A DNA stretch of 64,000 nt from Tequatrovirus LF73P3. The stretch lies in the sequence record OZ035756.1; one strand, written 5' to 3'. Position 1 is the stretch's first letter, and each line of letters starts with the position of its first letter. This document shows, one piece after another, positions 9,940-38,067 of the stretch. The notes beneath the pieces were generated by a model. It did not search any database, was not told where the DNA came from, and saw nothing but the letters and a program-made list of their open reading frames with translations. The translations under genes were made by a program, and so were the position numbers.

Positions 9940-10222
9940 GAGAAATAATTCCTTGATAAGCCCAATATGGCGGGTTAACAGAATCATCGCCAGAATTTTC
10001 TTCAGGAAAATAAACCTGGATAACAAATCCAGATTCATCAAAGGTAAAATAAACCGTAGGTAATTCACCTAACAATTCAGCACGATTATTAATTTCTTCG
10101 AGTTCTCGTTCACGTCCGGCCCAAAAACTAGGATTTAGACTACATTCATAGAAATAATAGTCATTACCGAACATATCAAAACCATTCCAACTCTCTACCA
10201 CATACCGCTCAAAACTAATCAT
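9911..10222 (-). CDS. hypothetical protein
   Basis: 103 aa ORF, aromatic-rich. Confidence 0.45.
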   Translation of the reverse strand: MISFERYVVESWNGFDMFGNDYYFYECSLNPSFWAGRERELEEINNRAELLGELPTVYFTFDESGFVIQVYFPEENSGDDSVNPPYWAYQGIISRGTKLELKE

Positions 10223-10224
10223 AA

Positions 10225-10440
10225 TTAAGCCTTTTTATCAAGAACAGCATTCAGTTTGTTAGTAATTTTATCCAGACGCTCATTGAACTCGCTAGAAGAC
10301 AGTCCTTTTTCTGGAGAAATCAAACTAATCACGAAAAATATAGCAATAAAAGGAATAAGGAAAATAGCTCCAACTGCCATAAACAGAAAGAATGTTACAG
10401 TTGTAAGAAAATCAGCTAAACCTTTGCGAAATTTATACAT
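10225..10440 (-). CDS. small membrane protein
   Basis: 71 aa, central hydrophobic segment FFLFMAVGAIFLIPFIAIFFVISLI. Confidence 0.4.
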   Translation of the reverse strand: MYKFRKGLADFLTTVTFFLFMAVGAIFLIPFIAIFFVISLISPEKGLSSSEFNERLDKITNKLNAVLDKKA

Positions 10441-10555
10441 ATTTTACCCTTAATTGATTAACCAAGCATTGATAAGCACTAAACTATATTGTGAATAAAA
10501 TTCTGGACCAAAATGAAAAATCATATCATTTATAGTGTCCATGATATAATTCAAT

Positions 10556-11026
10556 TTAATCATGTTTCCACACCCCATCGGTATTTGACCAAAGTCGCTG
10601 ATTATCTGATCCTCGCCACAGCTTTTTGGTCGGAAGATTTTTCTCATACTTCCCATCAATAATAACATCAACATATTTAAGCATTTCTAGTTGTTTAATA
10701 TCTTCAAACTTATATCCTGTCCACACCCAAATGCTTTTATTCGGATAAAGATTTTTTACTGTTTGAACAATGCAATGAACAACATCTCGGTTATCAGGAT
10801 AAAGAGGGTCTCCTCCAGTTATAGTTAATCCTTCTATATAATCATTATTCAAACATTTAATTAATTGTTCCAGTGTTTCACCAGTGAATGGAACGCCATT
10901 TCTAGCATTCCACGTTGATTTATTATAACACCCTTCGCATTTATGCAAACAACCTGTAACGAAAAGAACGACCCTGCATCCAGGGCCATTCACAAAATCG
11001 CAGGGATAAAATCTATCGTAATTCAT
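10556..11026 (-). CDS. nrdG: anaerobic ribonucleotide reductase activating protein NrdG (radical SAM)
   Basis: 156 aa, CxxxCxxC cluster (CLHKCEGCYN). Confidence 0.9.
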   Translation of the reverse strand: MNYDRFYPCDFVNGPGCRVVLFVTGCLHKCEGCYNKSTWNARNGVPFTGETLEQLIKCLNNDYIEGLTITGGDPLYPDNRDVVHCIVQTVKNLYPNKSIWVWTGYKFEDIKQLEMLKYVDVIIDGKYEKNLPTKKLWRGSDNQRLWSNTDGVWKHD

Positions 11027-12840
11027 TGGTGTTTAACCCTATGCATGATTTCTTTATTTTTGCCGAGATTAAATCCGCGCTCGTTCGGATTTCCCAAATA
11101 GCCGCATGTTCTTCTTATTGTGTTCATCTTTTTAGGATCAGTTTCTCCACAAATAGAACAAACAAATCCGTTTTCAGTAGGAGTCATTTCATGGGTACTT
11201 CCGCATGTAAAACATTTATCTACTGGCATGTTAACACCAAAATAATCTAAATGTTGTGCGGCATAATCCCATACAGCCTCAAGACCTTTTAGGTTATTTT
11301 TCATATCAGGAAGTTCAACATAAGAAATGTGACCGCCTGTTGCAATGAAATGATATGGTGCTTCGCGAGAAATCTTTTCAAACGGAGTAATATTTTCTTC
11401 TACTGAAACGTGGAAACTGTTAGTGTACCAGCCTTTATCAGTAACATCCTTTACACTTCCATATTTTTCGGTATCAAGTTTACAGAAGCGATAGCACAGG
11501 TTTTCAGCAGGTGTAGAATACAAACTAAAAGCAAAACCAGTTCTTTCAGTCCACTGCTTAAGACGAGCATTCATTTTAGTTAAAATTTCCTGTCCAATAT
11601 CACGACCGACAAGAATATTCAATTCATGAATACCAATGTATCCTAAAGACACCGAACTTCTACCGTTTTTAAATAACTCAATTATGTCGTCATCAGGTTT
11701 AAGACGAACCCCGAATGCACCTTCTTGGTAAAGAATAGGAGCTACAGTTGCTTTAACTCCTTTTAAGGAACTAATTCTACACATCAAAGCTTCAAAACAC
11801 AGATCCATTCGTTCATTGAACAATTCGGCAAATTTCTGTTCATTGAACTGTGTTCCAATATAAGAATCTAATGCAATGCGAGGAAGATTCAGTGTTACAA
11901 CACCAAGATTATTACGTCCATCAAGAATTTCATTACCAGTCGAATCTTTCCATACACTCAAGAAACTACGACAACCCATTGGAGAAACAGGAATAGATGA
12001 ACCGGTGATAGCTTTATTGTTCTTAGCCGAAATGATGTCAGGATACATTCTTTTGCTTGCACACTCTAGAGCAAGCTGCTTAATATCATAGTTTGGATCG
12101 TCTTTATAAAGATTAACACCTTCTTCAACGAACATAACAAGCTTAGGGAAAATAGGAGTTATCCCATCGCGACCAAGGCCTTTAATACGATTTTTCAGAA
12201 TTGCTTTCTGAATCATTCGTTCAGTCCAGTCAGTTCCCGTACCAAACGTAATTGTTACAAAAGGCGTTTGTCCGTTTGAACTAAAGAGAGTATTTACTTC
12301 ATATTCATAAGCTTGGAATGCATCGTATACGTCTTTTTCTGTTTTAGATTGGGCATAATTCAATGCATCAGCGATTTGCCATTTTTCTGCATCCTCAATA
12401 TGTTTTGCATAGGTGCGTTTAACATAAGGAGAAAGTACTTTATCTACATTCGCAAAAGTCGTTCCGCCATATTGATGGGAAGCAACCTGTGCAGTAATTT
12501 GTGCCATAATTGCAGTGGCAACGCCGATTGATTTAGGAGTTTCAATCTGTGCATTACCTAATTTAAATCCATTCTCAAGCATCCCCTTTAAATCGACTAA
12601 ACAGCAATTAGTAAATGGAAGAGCAGGAGAATAATCAATATCATGCACGTGAATGATTCCGCTTTCATGCGCATTCATAATAAAAGACGGGACCATATTT
12701 TTGGCAATGTGTTTAGACACAATACCAGCCATAAGGTCCCGTTGAGTTGGAAAAACACGAGAATCTTTATTAGCATTCTCGTTTAAAAGGTCTTTATTAG
12801 TTTTATGAATCAATCCTTCAATTTCTTTTTCAATTGTCAT
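11023..12840 (-). CDS. nrdD: anaerobic ribonucleoside-triphosphate reductase NrdD, uninterrupted
   Basis: 605 aa continuous ORF, C-terminal glycyl-radical region and Cys-rich tail CFTCGSTHEM...CSICGETD. Confidence 0.95.
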   Translation of the reverse strand: MTIEKEIEGLIHKTNKDLLNENANKDSRVFPTQRDLMAGIVSKHIAKNMVPSFIMNAHESGIIHVHDIDYSPALPFTNCCLVDLKGMLENGFKLGNAQIETPKSIGVATAIMAQITAQVASHQYGGTTFANVDKVLSPYVKRTYAKHIEDAEKWQIADALNYAQSKTEKDVYDAFQAYEYEVNTLFSSNGQTPFVTITFGTGTDWTERMIQKAILKNRIKGLGRDGITPIFPKLVMFVEEGVNLYKDDPNYDIKQLALECASKRMYPDIISAKNNKAITGSSIPVSPMGCRSFLSVWKDSTGNEILDGRNNLGVVTLNLPRIALDSYIGTQFNEQKFAELFNERMDLCFEALMCRISSLKGVKATVAPILYQEGAFGVRLKPDDDIIELFKNGRSSVSLGYIGIHELNILVGRDIGQEILTKMNARLKQWTERTGFAFSLYSTPAENLCYRFCKLDTEKYGSVKDVTDKGWYTNSFHVSVEENITPFEKISREAPYHFIATGGHISYVELPDMKNNLKGLEAVWDYAAQHLDYFGVNMPVDKCFTCGSTHEMTPTENGFVCSICGETDPKKMNTIRRTCGYLGNPNERGFNLGKNKEIMHRVKHQ

Positions 12841-32867: not shown

Positions 32868-33222
32868 CTAAGCGTGCTTGACTTATCGCAATGGACGCTT
32901 CGTCCGGGACATAATTATTACGAAATTCGGCAGGGATGTCGGAAATATCCTGGACAGTCGTGTCCTTGATTTTGAAACCACGTTTCAAGCATTCAGCGAT
33001 TAGCTCGATTTGACGTAAACGTAAAAATTCGAGCTTGTCGTAAAAGAATGTTACGTGACCTGTGCCTAATATAAATGTTGGAGAGATTTTAAAATCCTTT
33101 ACACATTTACCGTTTTGAACATGTTTACGGACTGCACCAAATACGCGTGGTAATTCACGATACTCTGCCATAAGATGTTGGTCGGTCAGTTCAGAAACAA
33201 GTGTTAAATTGATACGGGTCAT
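32809..33222 (-). CDS. denV: endonuclease V (pyrimidine dimer DNA glycosylase)
   Basis: [12 protein letters not shown]...[19 protein letters not shown]...[10 protein letters not shown]; start at Met5 of track ORF; matches T4 DenV. Confidence 0.9.
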
Positions 33223-33246
33223 AATTTCCTCCAAGTAGTTGATGAA

Positions 33247-33280
33247 TGTATAGTATCAAAACCCTTGGAGGAAGTAAACA

Positions 33281-33281
<1 letters not shown>
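33247..33281 (-). promoter_or_regulatory. early sigma70-type promoter upstream of denV
   Basis: Minus strand GTTTAC...TGATACTATACATTC. Confidence 0.45.
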
Positions 33282-34083
<802 letters not shown>

Positions 34084-34539
34084 TTAAAAGAGGTTGTTCA
34101 TTATTCGGTAAAGTGAAGGACCCATCACATATTGCCACTGAGTACGAGGAATAAGAGCAAAAGCATCCATCTCTGGAATCATAACGCCATCTTTATTTTC
34201 AAAATAAGACTCGCAGCGGCAATTTCTAAACATCTCATGCTCTACTGGAACCGTATAATAAAATAACTGTAAGTCTTTATTACTAGAATATTTAAATACA
34301 CCTAGGTCTTCTAGAAGGTCTGGATTATAATTGCTAAAGCCAGTCTCTTCTAAGCATTCTCTTCGTGCTGCGTCTAGTGCGCTTAAATCAGAATTTTCTA
34401 TACGGCCCTTTGGAATATCCCAGCGATGTGCCATCATTCCAGGTTTACGAGAACCGGTAACTCGTCCCATAAATAAATCTTTATCTTCTGTCATAAAGAT
34501 AATACCAGCTGATAATGTTTTCATTTTAATTTCCTGCAT
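34084..34539 (-). CDS. nudE: Nudix hydrolase NudE
   Basis: 151 aa; Nudix box GRIENSDLSALDAARRECLEETGF. Confidence 0.8.
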   Translation of the reverse strand: MQEIKMKTLSAGIIFMTEDKDLFMGRVTGSRKPGMMAHRWDIPKGRIENSDLSALDAARRECLEETGFSNYNPDLLEDLGVFKYSSNKDLQLFYYTVPVEHEMFRNCRCESYFENKDGVMIPEMDAFALIPRTQWQYVMGPSLYRIMNNLF

Positions 34540-35009
34540 TCAGTGATAAAATTATTTAAATTTTGAGCATATTTCTTTTCATCAAAAATCTTTTGTTGTC
34601 TGCGCATCCGCCATGGCATTTCAATGAACATGTACCATATTCCTGATAATATTGATGCTGTAAAAATATTAACAAGTATGGTTAAAAGAATCCAATCTCC
34701 TATTCTGTCCATTGGATTTTTTATAAAAAAGTAAAATACGAATGATGACACAGGAAGACTAATGATATACCACAGAATCATAATCTTATCTGTGAACCAT
34801 TCAGCATTCGTTAACTTAGCACGACCATTATGAATACACACGAATTTATCATCTGTTACAGTAGATGGCTTAACTGCTTGATATCCCATTCTAAACTCCC
34901 TAATTAATCGTTTCTTTGTATCTTCAGAACAGCCGCTCCAGTCAACTCTATCAACTGAAATGCCATCGTCCCCATCATCTAAATCATACCAGCGAGTTTT
35001 TAAAATCAT
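34521..35009 (-). CDS. membrane protein, member of triplicated paralog array
   Basis: 162 aa; TM segments; C-terminal NNFITECRKLK. Confidence 0.5.
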   Translation of the reverse strand: MILKTRWYDLDDGDDGISVDRVDWSGCSEDTKKRLIREFRMGYQAVKPSTVTDDKFVCIHNGRAKLTNAEWFTDKIMILWYIISLPVSSFVFYFFIKNPMDRIGDWILLTILVNIFTASILSGIWYMFIEMPWRMRRQQKIFDEKKYAQNLNNFITECRKLK

Positions 35010-35380
35010 TTAATTTTCCTACAATCACTCACAAACTCTTCCATTGATTCTTTTTCAATATAAGACATATAGCTATTATATTCCTTTAATTGTATTTTGT
35101 AATTCTTTTTTCTTTGCCAATTTATTTTAAAATTATCATAATGAAAATATAACATGGTACCAAAGAATGAAAATAATGAAATTGCTATAGTATAATGAAG
35201 TTCACTCCAAACTTCTATTATATCTACTATACCGCTGACGTTACTGCGGATGTTTAAAATAAAACAGTCAATTAACAATCCAATAAAACTACCCGCAAGA
35301 GCTGCAGCCAATGCCACAGCAAAAATTAAAAATGACTCAGAAAAAGAATATTTGACTTTATTTAGTCTTGGCTTTTGCAT
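35006..35380 (-). CDS. membrane protein, member of triplicated paralog array
   Basis: 124 aa; two TM segments; C-terminal EEFVSDCRKIK. Confidence 0.5.
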   Translation of the reverse strand: MQKPRLNKVKYSFSESFLIFAVALAAALAGSFIGLLIDCFILNIRSNVSGIVDIIEVWSELHYTIAISLFSFFGTMLYFHYDNFKINWQRKKNYKIQLKEYNSYMSYIEKESMEEFVSDCRKIK

Positions 35381-35775
35381 CGTGATTCCTTAACAAATTT
35401 CATAATTTCATTAAATTCATACTTAGCAAGTTTAATCTGGTGTTCCTTTTTAATCTTTTTACACTGGGCTTTCCAATCACGTACGCGTTTACGATAATGT
35501 CTTCCTTGATACCAGTATCCTACCCAATTTACGGGTACTAATAAAAGTGGAACTACCAATGGAAGAATTAGCATTAACACAAGTATTTCGCCAGAATCAA
35601 TATCAGTCATAACATCTAAAACACCTCCAATAATCAATAGAATTACAAATGATATAAGTATAACAGGACCTATTAATACATCGGTAGAAATTATCTGGTG
35701 CTTTGATTCATACTTCACAGGTTTACTTGGAAGGTATAGTGATGGCTTTGACATATTCTCTACATTCCTTAACAA
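35362..35775 (-). CDS. membrane protein, member of triplicated paralog array
   Basis: 137 aa; TM segments; C-terminal KAQCKKIKKEH...FVKESRCKSQD. Confidence 0.5.
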   Translation of the reverse strand: MLRNVENMSKPSLYLPSKPVKYESKHQIISTDVLIGPVILISFVILLIIGGVLDVMTDIDSGEILVLMLILPLVVPLLLVPVNWVGYWYQGRHYRKRVRDWKAQCKKIKKEHQIKLAKYEFNEIMKFVKESRCKSQD

Positions 35776-36337
35776 ATTTTTCTAATAATAAATCGCTTTC
35801 AAAATTGGGATTTTCCACGAATTTATCAAAAAGATCATCAACAATAGTTAAGATATTCTTTTTACTAAGAATACGCTTATTTTCATGCTTCGTTTCAGAA
35901 TCAACTATAAGAGTAAAGAAATATTTCTTTCCCTGAAATTTTACCGTAGTATCAATATAAAATAAATTTGACTTTTGTAAATTACGTTTAAACCATGCGT
36001 CACTTAAACTATAAACGCCAAGATAATCATAATCGTCATTTAAATAACAAACTGTCCATTCAGGAGAAATGAAATCAGTAAATTCAACATCAAAATCACA
36101 TGTCAATGAATGAATTGATTCAATACTTTTAATGAGTATTCCAGGACGTATTAAAGACTTTTTACCTCTACAAAATCTTCCAGAAAGACTTTCATCAGTT
36201 TCATATGAAGACCCCCAATAATAATTACGTCCTTCTGCCATACGTTTAAGAGCATTTAGTAATTGGTCTGGAACATCAACCTGTCTTTGGAACTCTTCAA
36301 ACATTGAATTGAAATCACTTTGCATTTTCATTTTCAT
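35723..36337 (-). CDS. hypothetical protein
   Basis: 204 aa ORF. Confidence 0.55.
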   Translation of the reverse strand: MKMKMQSDFNSMFEEFQRQVDVPDQLLNALKRMAEGRNYYWGSSYETDESLSGRFCRGKKSLIRPGILIKSIESIHSLTCDFDVEFTDFISPEWTVCYLNDDYDYLGVYSLSDAWFKRNLQKSNLFYIDTTVKFQGKKYFFTLIVDSETKHENKRILSKKNILTIVDDLFDKFVENPNFESDLLLEKFVKECREYVKAITIPSK

Positions 36338-36357
36338 TCCTATTTACTCCAAGTAAT

Positions 36358-36373
36358 AGGGGCCGAAGCCCCT
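36358..36373 (-). terminator. GC hairpin with UUCG loop
   Basis: aggggccgaagcccct between two genes. Confidence 0.4.
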
Positions 36374-36378
36374 TATCA

Positions 36379-36972
36379 TTATTTCAGAGAATTAATGTAT
36401 TCCTGGACATCGGCAGAGGTAGTTTCAACCCCGGAAATATTACCGTTAAAGGTTTCAACTCGAGCAAGAGTATCTTCAATATCAACCTTAGTCAGCGCTG
36501 CAATTTCAACTACATCATCAGCAGTACTAATTCCAAGGGCATTTGCTGCGCGAGTTTCACGGATATATTCCAATTTAACTGCAAGTTCTTGCCGAGCATC
36601 ATCTAACTCAACTACTTTCTTGGCGATTTCAATTCGCATTTCAGCATAACCATCAGCTTTAGTAGTCAACTGTTCAGCTGTTCGACGATATAGCAAGCCG
36701 AGTTTAGCGTGCATTGTTACATCTTGACCTTCAGAAAGAAGTTTACGAATTTCACGCTCTTTTGATTCGGCCTGTCGATTCTTTTCGATAACAAGTTCAC
36801 GAATACGCTTTTCTTCATTAATAGATTTAACAGAAGCAGTTTTTAGATCTTTAATTTTATCAAGTAGTTTTGCTGCTGCAGCAGTATACTGTTCTTCAAC
36901 AGATAAATTTTTAGCCATAGCAGAACCAAGTTTAGTGCGAATAAACTCAACAATTTTCTTCAGTGTGTTCAT
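36379..36972 (-). CDS. coiled-coil protein, possibly PspA/IM30-like
   Basis: 197 aa, long amphipathic helices; weak resemblance to PspA C-terminal LARxExF motif. Confidence 0.5.
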
Positions 36973-37014
36973 AGTATTTCCTTAGGTTGATTAAAAATAA
37001 AATCTGTGGAAGAA

Positions 37015-37560
37015 TTATATCATACTATTTAAGAGATGTAAACTATTTTTAATTTTACAAATTCGTTCAGCTTCTTCAACAGCGGCGGCGATAATGCTTT
37101 TAGCTATAGGAGTATTAATACTAGTAGCTTTTACACTTAACACGATTTCTTTATCTTTACTAGGCCAACCCCACGATTTTTCACCATGAGTGCCTTTAAT
37201 TACAGCAGACACCTCAAGTGAGCATCCATTATCACATGTTTTTACATTAACAACCCAAGGATCACTTTTCTCAACCGGTTTATCAAACGGTTTATCCCAG
37301 TAAATATTAAGAATACGTGGGACATCAAATACAGCAGGACAAATCTTAACTGTAAGACCTTCGCTTTCTAGCCAATTAATAAGAGGGCGTTCATACATGC
37401 GGCGATGTGGGCTTCGGACTCGACAAGCCTTGTGCCCATTGCTTGCGGCTTCACTAAGCTGTTCTAATACCTGCTTTTGCATTATTGATAAGATACCATC
37501 AAAAGATTTTTCGGAAGTTTCATTCAGTTCTGTATAAAGAGACATAACAGTTTTCCTCAA
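37015..37560 (-). CDS. hypothetical protein
   Basis: 181 aa ORF (true start may be MSLYTELNE). Confidence 0.5.
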   Translation of the reverse strand: MRKTVMSLYTELNETSEKSFDGILSIMQKQVLEQLSEAASNGHKACRVRSPHRRMYERPLINWLESEGLTVKICPAVFDVPRILNIYWDKPFDKPVEKSDPWVVNVKTCDNGCSLEVSAVIKGTHGEKSWGWPSKDKEIVLSVKATSINTPIAKSIIAAAVEEAERICKIKNSLHLLNSMI

Positions 37561-37601
37561 GTTATAGGCTCATAATATCTCAATCATGAGCCTATGTAAA
37601 C

Positions 37602-37877
37602 TTATTTCATATTATTGAAATATTCTTCTGCGATTTCGTCGTTATCGTGGTAAACTTTAGAAGACAGTTTAACATAACCTTCTGCCGTGAACATATTAAT
37701 CACAACCTTTACAGTATACCACTGACCGTCTTCATTACCCATTACTGCGTAAGTTTCAAACATCGGATGATCAGGACCGATAACTTTAATATCATTCACT
37801 GTACGACCGAAATCTTCTGAAACACATTTCATAAAGAAGTTGAACAGTTCGCCGTAATTATCCATTTTATTCTCCAA
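37602..37877 (-). CDS. hypothetical acidic protein
   Basis: 91 aa ORF directly after early promoter. Confidence 0.5.
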   Translation of the reverse strand: MENKMDNYGELFNFFMKCVSEDFGRTVNDIKVIGPDHPMFETYAVMGNEDGQWYTVKVVINMFTAEGYVKLSSKVYHDNDEIAEEYFNNMK

Positions 37878-37904
37878 GTTGTTTTCTGTATCAGTAGTTG
37901 ATAG

Positions 37905-37940
37905 TTGTATAGTACCATGGAAGAACAGGGATGTAAACCA
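37905..37940 (-). promoter_or_regulatory. early sigma70-type promoter (conserved core)
   Basis: Minus strand TTTTTCACAAAATGGTTTAC...CATGGTACTATACAACTATCAAC. Confidence 0.5.
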
Positions 37941-38067
37941 TTTTGTGAAAAAAATTTTTAAAAGTTTTAGGGAATTCTAGGGAGGGAAGGGGCGATTAAA
38001 GGATAGGATAATATATTATAAAGGGTAGAAACTAAATGATGCCTAGAGAGGTCCAGAAAGGTCTAGA

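Follow-up and report, generated by a model that had tools for sequence, protein, structure and literature searches.

The minus strand of Tequatrovirus LF73P3 (sequence record OZ035756.1; the 64,000-nucleotide stretch analyzed here is called the window) carries, near the lysozyme gene e, a string of short, overlapping genes whose products end in a shared six-residue peptide, here called the F-I-x-x-C-R box. These genes and this box are the subject of the present analysis. The region from 34000 to 36400 has 90 to 99% DNA identity to 513 phage records, nearly all of them Tequatrovirus, and in annotated relatives the minus-strand gene order is e (lysozyme), nudE, e.2, e.3, e.4, e.5, e.6. Three of the open reading frames (ORFs), which an earlier note made from the sequence had described as a tandem array of paralogous small membrane proteins, are recognizable by sequence as orthologous to e.2, e.3, and e.4, early genes of phage T4. 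Genes e.2 to e.5 are themselves already catalogued in T4, without an assigned role. About half of the T4 genes are still without a function, and e.2 to e.5 exemplify them. The overlapping string is laid out as follows.

35723..36337, minus strand: e.5 orthologue, 204 residues, without a transmembrane (TM) helix; ends in the same box, FVKECREYVKAITIPSK, before the stop codon; overlaps the e.4 start by 32 nucleotides (nt); phrog_2607, PF26876 (Phage_T4_Y06P).
35362..35754, minus strand: e.4 orthologue, 130 residues from ATG 35754; predicted TM helices at 31-49 and 57-75, a long basic helix, and the box variant FVKESRCKSQD before the stop codon.
35006..35380, minus strand: e.3 orthologue, 124 residues; N terminus MQKPRL, predicted TM helix at 19-37 and a weaker one at 61-79, a basic tail, and FVSDCRKIK before the stop codon.
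34521..35009, minus strand: e.2 orthologue, 162 residues; predicted cytoplasmic N-terminal domain (1-74), TM helices at 78-96 and 106-124, a basic tail, and the box FITECRKLK before the stop codon.
34084..34524, minus strand: nudE (e.1), Nudix hydrolase, the final cistron of the overlapping string; its ATG at 34524 overlaps the e.2 stop codon (ATGA).

The earlier note gave the three membrane protein genes lengths of 162, 124, and 137 codons. They are indeed overlapping minus-strand ORFs (34521-35009, 35006-35380, and 35362-35775), but the third product is likely to have 130 residues, not 137. The start of e.4 is most likely ATG 35754, and the 137-residue version from TTG 35775 an ORF-finder artefact, because the orthologues all begin MSKP..., the PHROG profile spans residues 8-136 of the longer version, and GenBank gives a gene of 393 nt. 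Each of the three proteins has a full-length profile match: e.2 to phrog_2203 (3.2e-77, residues 1-160; precomputed Pfam PF26896, Phage_T4_Y06M), e.3 to phrog_2330 (2.8e-61, residues 1-122), and e.4 to phrog_2604 (2.4e-69; precomputed Pfam PF26873, Phage_T4_Y06O). When aligned to distant members of its family, the e.2 protein of the window fits the family features, which are an N-terminal domain with W..lDDG.eGi..VDW..C, two TM helices, and a C-terminal FIKxCRK. The database relatives of e.3 form 45 clusters, all at least 66% identical, while the Mosigvirus and Dhakavirus orthologues have roughly 20 to 37% identity. The T4 proteins, described as “conserved hypothetical, predicted membrane proteins,” are orthologous, the order e.5-e.4-e.3-e.2-nudE-e is kept, and protein identity to hundreds of Tequatrovirus entries is 78 to 100%. 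One difference is that e.2 of the T4 reference is truncated (309 nt, 102 residues, phrog_35263; T4 67652-67960, PMC11879866 supplement), whereas the window and most relatives have the 162-residue form.

What kind of proteins are these? Kyte-Doolittle hydropathy in 19-residue windows finds two hydrophobic helices in e.2 (78-96, mean 1.98; 106-124, mean 2.04) and two in e.4 (31-49, mean 2.85; 57-75, mean 3.03). In e.3, the helix at 19-37 is strong (2.51) and that at 61-79 weaker (1.37), although Dhakavirus e.3 has a clearly hydrophobic helix there (2.03). Basic residues outnumber acidic ones in the C-terminal tails of e.2, e.3, and e.4 (K+R/D+E counts of 9/4, 10/6, and 16/6, respectively). Hydropathy and charge counts thus agree with the earlier description of TM helices followed by a basic C-terminal tail in each protein, the second helix of e.3 being weak. 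Together they support two-helix hairpins predicted to have both termini in the cytoplasm (N-in/C-in) and a basic cytoplasmic tail, a topology supported by the basic N termini, the acidic or neutral loops, and the strongly basic C-terminal tails. In AlphaFold2 models the second TM helix (TM2) continues on the cytoplasmic side as a long helix, with the box at its end. The e.4 model has helices at 24-49, 54-108, and 111-127 and a mean predicted local distance difference test score (pLDDT) of 69; the e.2 model is poor (pLDDT 52). e.2 has an additional N-terminal domain of 75 residues. Scans of e.2 to e.5 against Pfam, NCBIfam, and PADLOC returned only subthreshold or chance-level matches of TM type (Pfam E<=1), sequence searches of PDB gave no match, and Foldseek with the e.4 model against viral structures retrieved e.4 orthologues only.

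The uniting feature of the string lies at the very ends of the proteins, where the box is encoded at four consecutive junctions together with the putative Shine-Dalgarno (SD) sequence of the next gene.

35759..35776, minus strand: e.5 box, ttt gtt aag gaa tgt aga; the e.4 ATG follows at 35754.
35380..35397, minus strand: e.4 box, ttt gtt aag gaa tca cgA; AAGGAA as the e.3 SD, with the e.3 ATG beginning in the final box codon.
35018..35035, minus strand: e.3 box, ttt gtg agt gat tgt agg; AGGAAA as the e.2 SD, with an ATGA overlap.
34533..34550, minus strand: e.2 box, ttt atc act gaa tgc agg, followed by aaa tta aaA TGA, giving the SD AGGAAA and the nudE start.

When the 64-kb window is translated in six frames, the loose pattern [FY][IVL].[ED][CSI]R turns up six times, four of them at the C termini of the consecutive genes e.5, e.4, e.3, and e.2. 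The strict form F[IV].[ED]CR has a total of three occurrences over all six frames of about 172 kb (the window plus the remainder of a 97.8%-identical genome), solely at the C termini of e.5, e.3, and e.2. Likewise, only these three among 349 ORFs of at least 60 codons carry F[IV]xxC[RK] within the last 22 residues. By the six-frame and the 349-ORF counts, the shared motif singled out in the earlier note (FITECR, FVSDCR, and FVKESR) is present far beyond chance. The note did not mention that e.5, which has no TM helix, also ends in the box (FVKECREY); the box is therefore not specific to membrane proteins. The core pattern, [FW]-[IV]-x-x-[C]-[RK] at most about 20 residues from the C terminus, is fitted by e.5, e.3, and e.2, and e.4 is a variant with S at position 5. 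No description of the box was found in the literature, to which access was limited, and searches with the gene names e.2 to e.5 turned up nothing functional.

Is the box a peptide, a ribosome-binding site, or both? At the usual junction it reads TTT ATT AAG GAA TGY MGN, with the next ATG a few bases on, often as ATGA, a layout that makes AAGGA the likely SD of the next gene. In the e.3 and e.2 boxes of Tequatrovirus the SD is instead AGGAAA, within the Arg-Lys codons, and two added codons restore the spacing. Lys AAG is enriched at box position 3 (8/13, against a background of 30%), and in distant e.2 homologues K-E becomes K-G with AAGGA preserved. The codons of the other positions tell of the peptide. 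Among 34 box proteins, Phe is present in 32 (TTT 22 and TTC 10, the background frequency), Cys in 26 (TGC 15 and TGT 11), and Arg in 31, with all six codons in use. Additionally, e.5 of Dhakavirus and Gaprivervirus keeps the box though the e.4 SD sits about 20 nt further on, and a 102-residue protein of Jiaodavirus keeps it without any following start codon. No other coupled gene pair in the 172 kb encodes the box. Because synonymous codons are freely used and the box persists where the SD lies elsewhere or no start follows, its sequence record marks it as a peptide that purifying selection has maintained in at least nine T4-like genera. On this evidence the box is both a selected peptide and, in most junctions, the apparent SD of the next cistron.

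The overlaps leave no gap anywhere in the string. They amount to ATGA at e.3/e.2 and at e.2/nudE, 19 nt at e.4/e.3, and 32 nt at e.5/e.4, and at each of the four consecutive junctions AAGGAA or AGGAAA lies 5 to 11 nt upstream of the next ATG. Stop and start codons that overlap, with the SD inside the upstream ORF, are the mark of a translationally coupled operon, and e.5, e.4, e.3, e.2, and nudE probably form one gap-free, translationally coupled string. The likeness to coupled cistrons in general extends to four junctions in succession, 4- to 32-nt overlaps, and SDs placed in upstream coding sequence. Ordinary coupled junctions, however, impose no common upstream peptide, whereas here a six-residue box recurs in 34 proteins. 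For nudE there are two candidate starts. One, ATG 34539, lies inside the e.2 box codons and gives 151 residues, the length of the T4 annotation (456 nt). The other, ATG 34524 (146 residues), is more likely, because of its ATGA overlap with the e.2 stop and an AGGAAA 6 nt upstream. A structured RNA element at the junctions was considered and rejected on comparison of folds with shuffles: RNA folding of the four junctions gave no structure beyond that of the shuffled sequences (z +1.2 to -1.0). Rfam at a permissive threshold gave no RNA family in 33000-38000, and a sigma-70 promoter scan showed no excess (21 found versus 17.7 expected). The junction sequence AAAUUUGUUAAGGAAU (35385-35400 and 35764-35779) appears to resemble the consensus selected by systematic evolution of ligands by exponential enrichment for the RegA translational repressor, AAAAUUGUUAUGUAA.

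How far does the box reach beyond Tequatrovirus? Tequatro-, Mosig-, Dhaka-, and Gaprivervirus carry it at the ends of e.5, e.4, e.3, and e.2, and in Jiaoda-, Kanagawa-, Moon-, and Karamvirus it ends four to six proteins, membrane and soluble, encoded between e.6 and e. A HMMER search with the e.2 profile against 1.84 billion representative proteins found 15 clusters only, and every full-length member ends in FIK[EGM]CR[KN]. The box proteins noted in further genera are these.

Klebsiella Jiaodavirus: an e.5-like protein, e.4, two-TM proteins of 98 and 108 residues, and a soluble protein of 102 residues between nudE and e.
Karamvirus PG7: one soluble and four consecutive two-TM proteins.
Moonvirus: five box proteins.
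Kanagawavirus: four box proteins.
Aeromonas Biquartavirus: an e.5-like protein.

The gene content of the interval from e.6 to e varies greatly between genera. In Mosig-, Dhaka-, Gapriver-, Kanagawa-, and Moonvirus, e.6 is followed by e.5-e.4-e.3 or equivalents. e.4 and e.3 remain adjacent in Mosig-, Gapriver-, Kanagawa-, and Moonvirus, where e.2 lies about 3 to 4 kb away from them. In the genera checked, e.2 belongs to a conserved block, a gene for 228 residues followed by e.2, a gene for 76 to 78 residues, and nudE. Since e.2 is distant from e.4-e.3 elsewhere, the tandem triple is specific to Tequatrovirus. All-against-all BLASTP places the membrane box proteins in at least six families, mostly linked solely via the box and the tail just before it; the clearest exception is e.2 with its short relatives, and e.3/e.4 is a weak one. 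A separate observation in six other genera is a tandem series of small soluble proteins (65 to 105 residues) between e.3 and e.2, each ending in G.W[VI]SSS..C directly before the stop codon and absent from the window (loci L004 3357-4151, L007 3300-3881, L020 7710-9315, L021 8078-8846, and L022 7302-7828). These look like genuine tandem paralogues with a C-terminal motif of their own.

Are e.2, e.3, and e.4 themselves paralogues, as the earlier note proposed? BLASTP joins e.2 and e.3 through the C-terminal 14 residues only (E=0.007) and e.3 and e.4 through the N terminus and first TM helix (TM1) only (E=0.001), and finds no match between e.2 and e.4. The three proteins belong to three distinct PHROGs, and e.2 and e.4 to two distinct Pfam families. 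Five of six orthologue queries from four genera (tblastn, E cutoffs of 0.01 to 1) hit exactly one place per phage record; the sixth, Mosigvirus e.3 (E<=0.1), hit 724 places in 723 records, the extra place being of uninspected nature. When multigenus family alignments were compared with hhalign, e.2/e.3 matched over 14 columns (P=1.5e-5) and e.3/e.4 over 39 to 40 columns covering the box and the preceding helix (P=7e-5 to 2e-5), with weaker matches over 11 to 13 columns for e.2/e.5 and e.3/e.5 and none for e.2/e.4 and e.4/e.5. The signals are limited to the box (11 to 15 columns) or, for e.3/e.4, the box and the helix before it, and after removal of the box all pairs fall to P>=0.005, the level of the reversed-sequence control. 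Box-free cross-family hidden Markov model (HMM) scores of 8.9 to 12.4 bits rank with the highest few percent of decoys made by reversal or block shuffling, which amounts to chance because the best of about 18 targets would reach the same decoy percentile. For all but the termini, then, BLASTP, hhalign, and the HMM decoys show no significant pairwise similarity beyond composition, the very outcome that the note had said would refute it, and the triplication of one membrane protein finds no support: outside the last 12 or so residues the three do not exceed composition-matched decoys, and they sit in separate PHROG and Pfam families. What survives of the idea of a single family is the common architecture (two-TM hairpin, basic tail, and box); significant similarity outside the box is lacking and the tandem order is not kept in related genera. 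It is plausible that e.3 and e.4 are ancient duplicates: they match in size, are always adjacent, both have M-x-K-P-x-L at the N terminus, and their junction DNA is homologous over about 45 nt. e.2, to judge from these comparisons, is a different protein that became adjacent in Tequatrovirus only.

The box DNA also marks sites of gene loss. e.2 is exactly absent from phage vB_EcoM_G4498 (L025 1500-1600) and from a T4-like genome inside an Escherichia coli assembly (L024 6690-6780), the site corresponding to 34521-35035 of the window. In these e.2-less genomes e.3 ends in FVSDCRKLK or FVIDCRKLK before the stop codon, in frame and with the ATGA overlap to nudE retained. The junction gagtttgtga.tgattgCAGGAAATTAAAATGaaaac is a hybrid: the e.3 box supplies its left half, and the e.2 box together with the nudE initiation region supplies its right half. 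The same joint is found on one IMG/VR contig, and e.3 without e.2 in about 50 of some 500 Tequatrovirus records (about 10%); the pattern scans of IMG/VR for junctions returned 1 and 2 contigs, too few for frequencies. A 16-mer, AAATTTGTTAAGGAAT, has just two exact copies in the window, which flank the body of e.4.

35385..35400, minus strand: copy 1 of AAATTTGTTAAGGAAT, at the e.4/e.3 junction.
35764..35779, minus strand: copy 2 of AAATTTGTTAAGGAAT, at the e.5/e.4 junction.

A divergent e.4 allele (35412-35719, compared with three relatives) falls between both copies. Other rearrangements of the locus took different routes. Phages vB_EcoM-UFV05 and UFV11 (P0143) have an in-frame chimera, e.4(1-31)::e.2(88-162), found on five contigs and corresponding to about 34750-35665 of the window; it has lost e.3 entirely, along with the remainder of e.4 and the N-terminal domain of e.2, and the crossover lies in a similar TM1 stretch, PV..SFV. 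In Mosigvirus p000v (L006 3393-3495) the 5' two-thirds of e.3 are deleted and the last 32 or so codons, with the box and the ribosome-binding site of the next gene, are kept; several Mosigviruses share such a remnant. Both the UFV05 chimera and the p000v deletion involve unrelated microhomologies, not boxes. An apparent e.2-tail fusion (P0204/L015) proved to be a chimeric metagenome scaffold of 524 bp and was discarded. In the E. coli assembly just mentioned (GCA_025336695.1, contig JAODFN010000001.1, 489 kb; L024 about 9990-12393), the T4-like segment abuts E. coli genes for LysE, LysR, and a DEAD helicase; the probable cause is phage contamination of the culture, giving a chimeric assembly, and not the integration of a lytic phage. 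In Shigella phage vB_SsoM_113 (L001 3851-4825), e.5 and e.4 are annotated as one coding sequence of 975 nt. With 1 nt deleted from a GAAAAAT run (window 35777-35781, A5), e.5 passes into the reading frame of e.4, which has no stop codon as far back as TTG 35775; either a sequencing error in the homopolymer or a genuine fusion may account for this.

Within Tequatrovirus, the cytoplasmic tails and boxes are almost invariant, and e.3 and e.4 vary in TM1 and the periplasmic loop (entropy of 0.66 to 0.93 there versus 0.07 to 0.26 in the tail). The ratio of nonsynonymous to synonymous substitution rates (dN/dS) is 0.2 to 0.56 for e.3 and e.4 versus 0.02 to 0.12 for e.6 and e. Values never exceed 1, which means that positive selection does not act on the genes as a whole. 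The earlier notion of a diversifying family therefore stands in part: small two-TM box proteins number two to four per interval across T4-like genera and e.3/e.4 vary in their membrane and periplasmic parts, but dN/dS stays below 1. This pattern fits relaxed constraint on a generic membrane anchor or the exchange of a few discrete alleles; an arms race is not demonstrated. In T4, the RNAs of e.2, e.3, e.4, and e.5 are classed as early and the proteins have been detected (PMC9697503 supplement). CRISPRi-ART knockdown of these genes in T4 is scored “Not Fit,” meaning no fitness effect, with the function listed as unknown (PMC11879866 supplement), and the e.2 to e.4 proteins are dispensable under laboratory conditions.

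Taken as a whole, the reading that we favor, with moderate confidence, is that of membrane proteins of separate families and a soluble e.5, encoded in a coupled string in which the box serves as docking peptide, ribosome-binding site, and joint at once. e.2, e.3, and e.4 would be small inner-membrane hairpins whose N and C termini both face the cytoplasm and whose tail is basic and helical, united with e.5 by the box F-[IV]-x-x-C-R(-K). The peptide would most likely act as a common cytoplasmic docking or assembly motif toward one shared partner or toward each other. At most junctions the SD of the next cistron, whose start overlaps the stop, is supplied either by box codons 3 and 4 (AAG GAA or AAA GGA) or by AGG AAA, encoding Arg-Lys, and translation would probably be coupled from e.5 through e.4, e.3, and e.2 to nudE, as the sequence layout suggests. 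The repeated box DNA, finally, serves as a joint for the exact in-frame gain or loss of a gene, as seen for e.2. A bolder version is possible, if on balance doubtful: that the box defines a previously unrecognized superfamily of T4-like early proteins, membrane and soluble, whose portable C-terminal peptide binds a single partner or coassembles (e.g., via Cys) into a membrane-associated complex, with the same 18 to 24 nt acting as ribosome-binding site and cassette joint. Several points weigh against the favored reading. The docking role is a pure inference. The motif is degenerate, with no Cys in 8 of 34 boxes and K for R in 3 of 34; in the window the e.4 box has its Cys shifted by two residues (FVKESRC), and at e.5/e.4 the SD stands a long way (11 nt) from the start. 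Similarity between small TM proteins that evolve fast can fade beyond detection, so common ancestry of the three bodies may apply. There are also reciprocal weak matches in box-free searches of a 33-sequence database (the e.3 HMM to Dhakavirus e.4, E=0.001; the e.4 HMM to e.3, E=0.004), although decoys score equally.

Could the genes be true tandem paralogues after all, an ancestral two-TM gene having triplicated and its copies having diverged past recognition while gene overlap held the termini similar? The like architecture and similar sizes of e.2, e.3, and e.4 would fit, as would the N terminus, junction DNA, and hhalign match shared by e.3 and e.4, the four two-TM genes in tandem in Karamvirus, and the natural e.4::e.2 chimera, which crosses in frame at a matching TM1 point. 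We consider this unlikely, given box-free scores at the level of composition-matched decoys, essentially no tblastn cross-matches (the one uninspected place apart), distinct PHROGs and Pfams, and an e.2 that carries an extra domain of 75 residues and, in other genera, keeps a conserved gene order of its own at a distance from e.4-e.3; soluble proteins bear the same box, which therefore marks no membrane protein lineage. The box might instead have no function as a peptide and be merely the AU-rich-plus-SD initiation region of the next gene, read in the upstream frame. TTT ATT AAG GAA is, after all, UUUAUUAAGGAA directly 5' of the next ATG at most junctions, position 4 alternates between the chemically unlike E and G while AAGGA stays, and AAG at position 3 and AGR at position 6 are enriched. 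Yet Phe, Cys, and Arg are kept through free synonymous change, including AGA to CGT, and the box persists in the Dhakavirus and Gaprivervirus e.5 and the Jiaodavirus 102-residue protein and is encoded by no further coupled pair in the 172 kb, which makes this explanation very improbable. Equally improbable is a box that is primarily a recombination linker, a coding cassette boundary for in-frame swap, gain, and loss in the manner of PeSL elements, the promoter/stem-loop cassettes by which modules of T4-type genomes are shuffled (PMC2839356 and PMC4122927). The loss of e.2 exactly from one box to the next, seen in at least two independent genomes and one IMG/VR contig, the e.4 allele replacement bounded by identical 16-mers, and the variable gene content of the interval speak for it, and PeSLs too are short repeats at gene boundaries of the hyperplastic region that allow precise gene gain and loss. 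A linker would need DNA identity, however, yet the DNA drifts synonymously across genera while the peptide stays, and the P0143 and p000v rearrangements did not use boxes. PeSLs, moreover, are intergenic and combine a promoter and a hairpin, whereas the box lies inside coding overlaps without a hairpin or promoter excess and is conserved as a peptide; the intergenic early promoter with stem-loop that defines a PeSL is not found at box junctions.

Two further proposals concern the membrane proteins as such. The earlier note had suggested superinfection exclusion or interaction with the envelope, and e.2 to e.4 could indeed act there, with periplasm-facing parts that diversify in an arms race. 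T4 Imm and Sp are small, early, nonessential inner-membrane proteins, and e.2 to e.4 are like them in size, early timing, location, and phage group. The concentration of Tequatrovirus variation in TM1 and the periplasmic loop of e.3/e.4, and their dN/dS above that of neighboring genes, would agree with such a role. On the other side, Imm and Sp have neither the long basic tail nor the box and no sequence relationship to e.2 to e.4, the scans (Pfam E<=1, PADLOC, and NCBIfam) gave no similarity to Imm, Sp, or any defense or exclusion family, the variation at dN/dS below 1 looks like exchange of a few discrete alleles, and the best-conserved part is cytoplasmic. We regard the proposal as rather improbable. 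Still less credible, indeed hardly to be entertained, is a role as holin- or antiholin-like regulators of lysis. Small proteins with two TM helices, N-in/C-in topology, and charged C-terminal tails encoded near the endolysin gene e do recall class II holins such as S of phage 21, but e.2 to e.4 are expressed early, match no holin family in Pfam, show no fitness effect on knockdown, and are separated from e by nudE. T4 lysis is already accounted for by t, rI, and rIII, and the holin of T4 itself, T, is unrelated to the class II holins.

Two further features lie at or beyond the upstream edge of the string.

36358..36373, strand not assigned: hairpin GGGGCUUCGGCCCC with a UUCG loop, between e.6 and e.5, at the upstream edge of the gap-free e.5-e.4-e.3-e.2-nudE block.
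36379-36972: e.6, upstream of e.5.

The annotations of phages Lutter and G4498 label the hairpin a terminator. Purifying selection on e.6 is very strong (dN/dS 0 to 0.04), and the gene occurs in 1,106 phage records, among them phages of Aeromonas and Pectobacterium. Sites that resemble strong early promoters precede e.6 (37042-37014) and e.7 (37600-37572). Some GenBank names at this locus were rejected: “sulfurtransferase” for e.3 and e.4 (e.g., OQ446694 and OR125554) and “site-specific RNA endonuclease” or “phosphoserine phosphatase” for e.5 have no backing in Pfam, NCBIfam, or PHROG, and “host specificity protein” for e.6 is unsupported by the profile libraries.

What does the locus mean for T4-like phages? 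Finding one terminal motif in several overlapping genes is no evidence that they are paralogues. The shared peptide turns otherwise unrelated ORFs, four here and up to six in other genera, into a group with one testable handle. The locus is also a compact case of three overlaid constraints: (i) a peptide motif, (ii) the ribosome-binding site of the next gene, and (iii) a recombination joint. Finally, it shows a route to precise in-frame gain and loss of genes in a hyperplastic region without intergenic cassettes.

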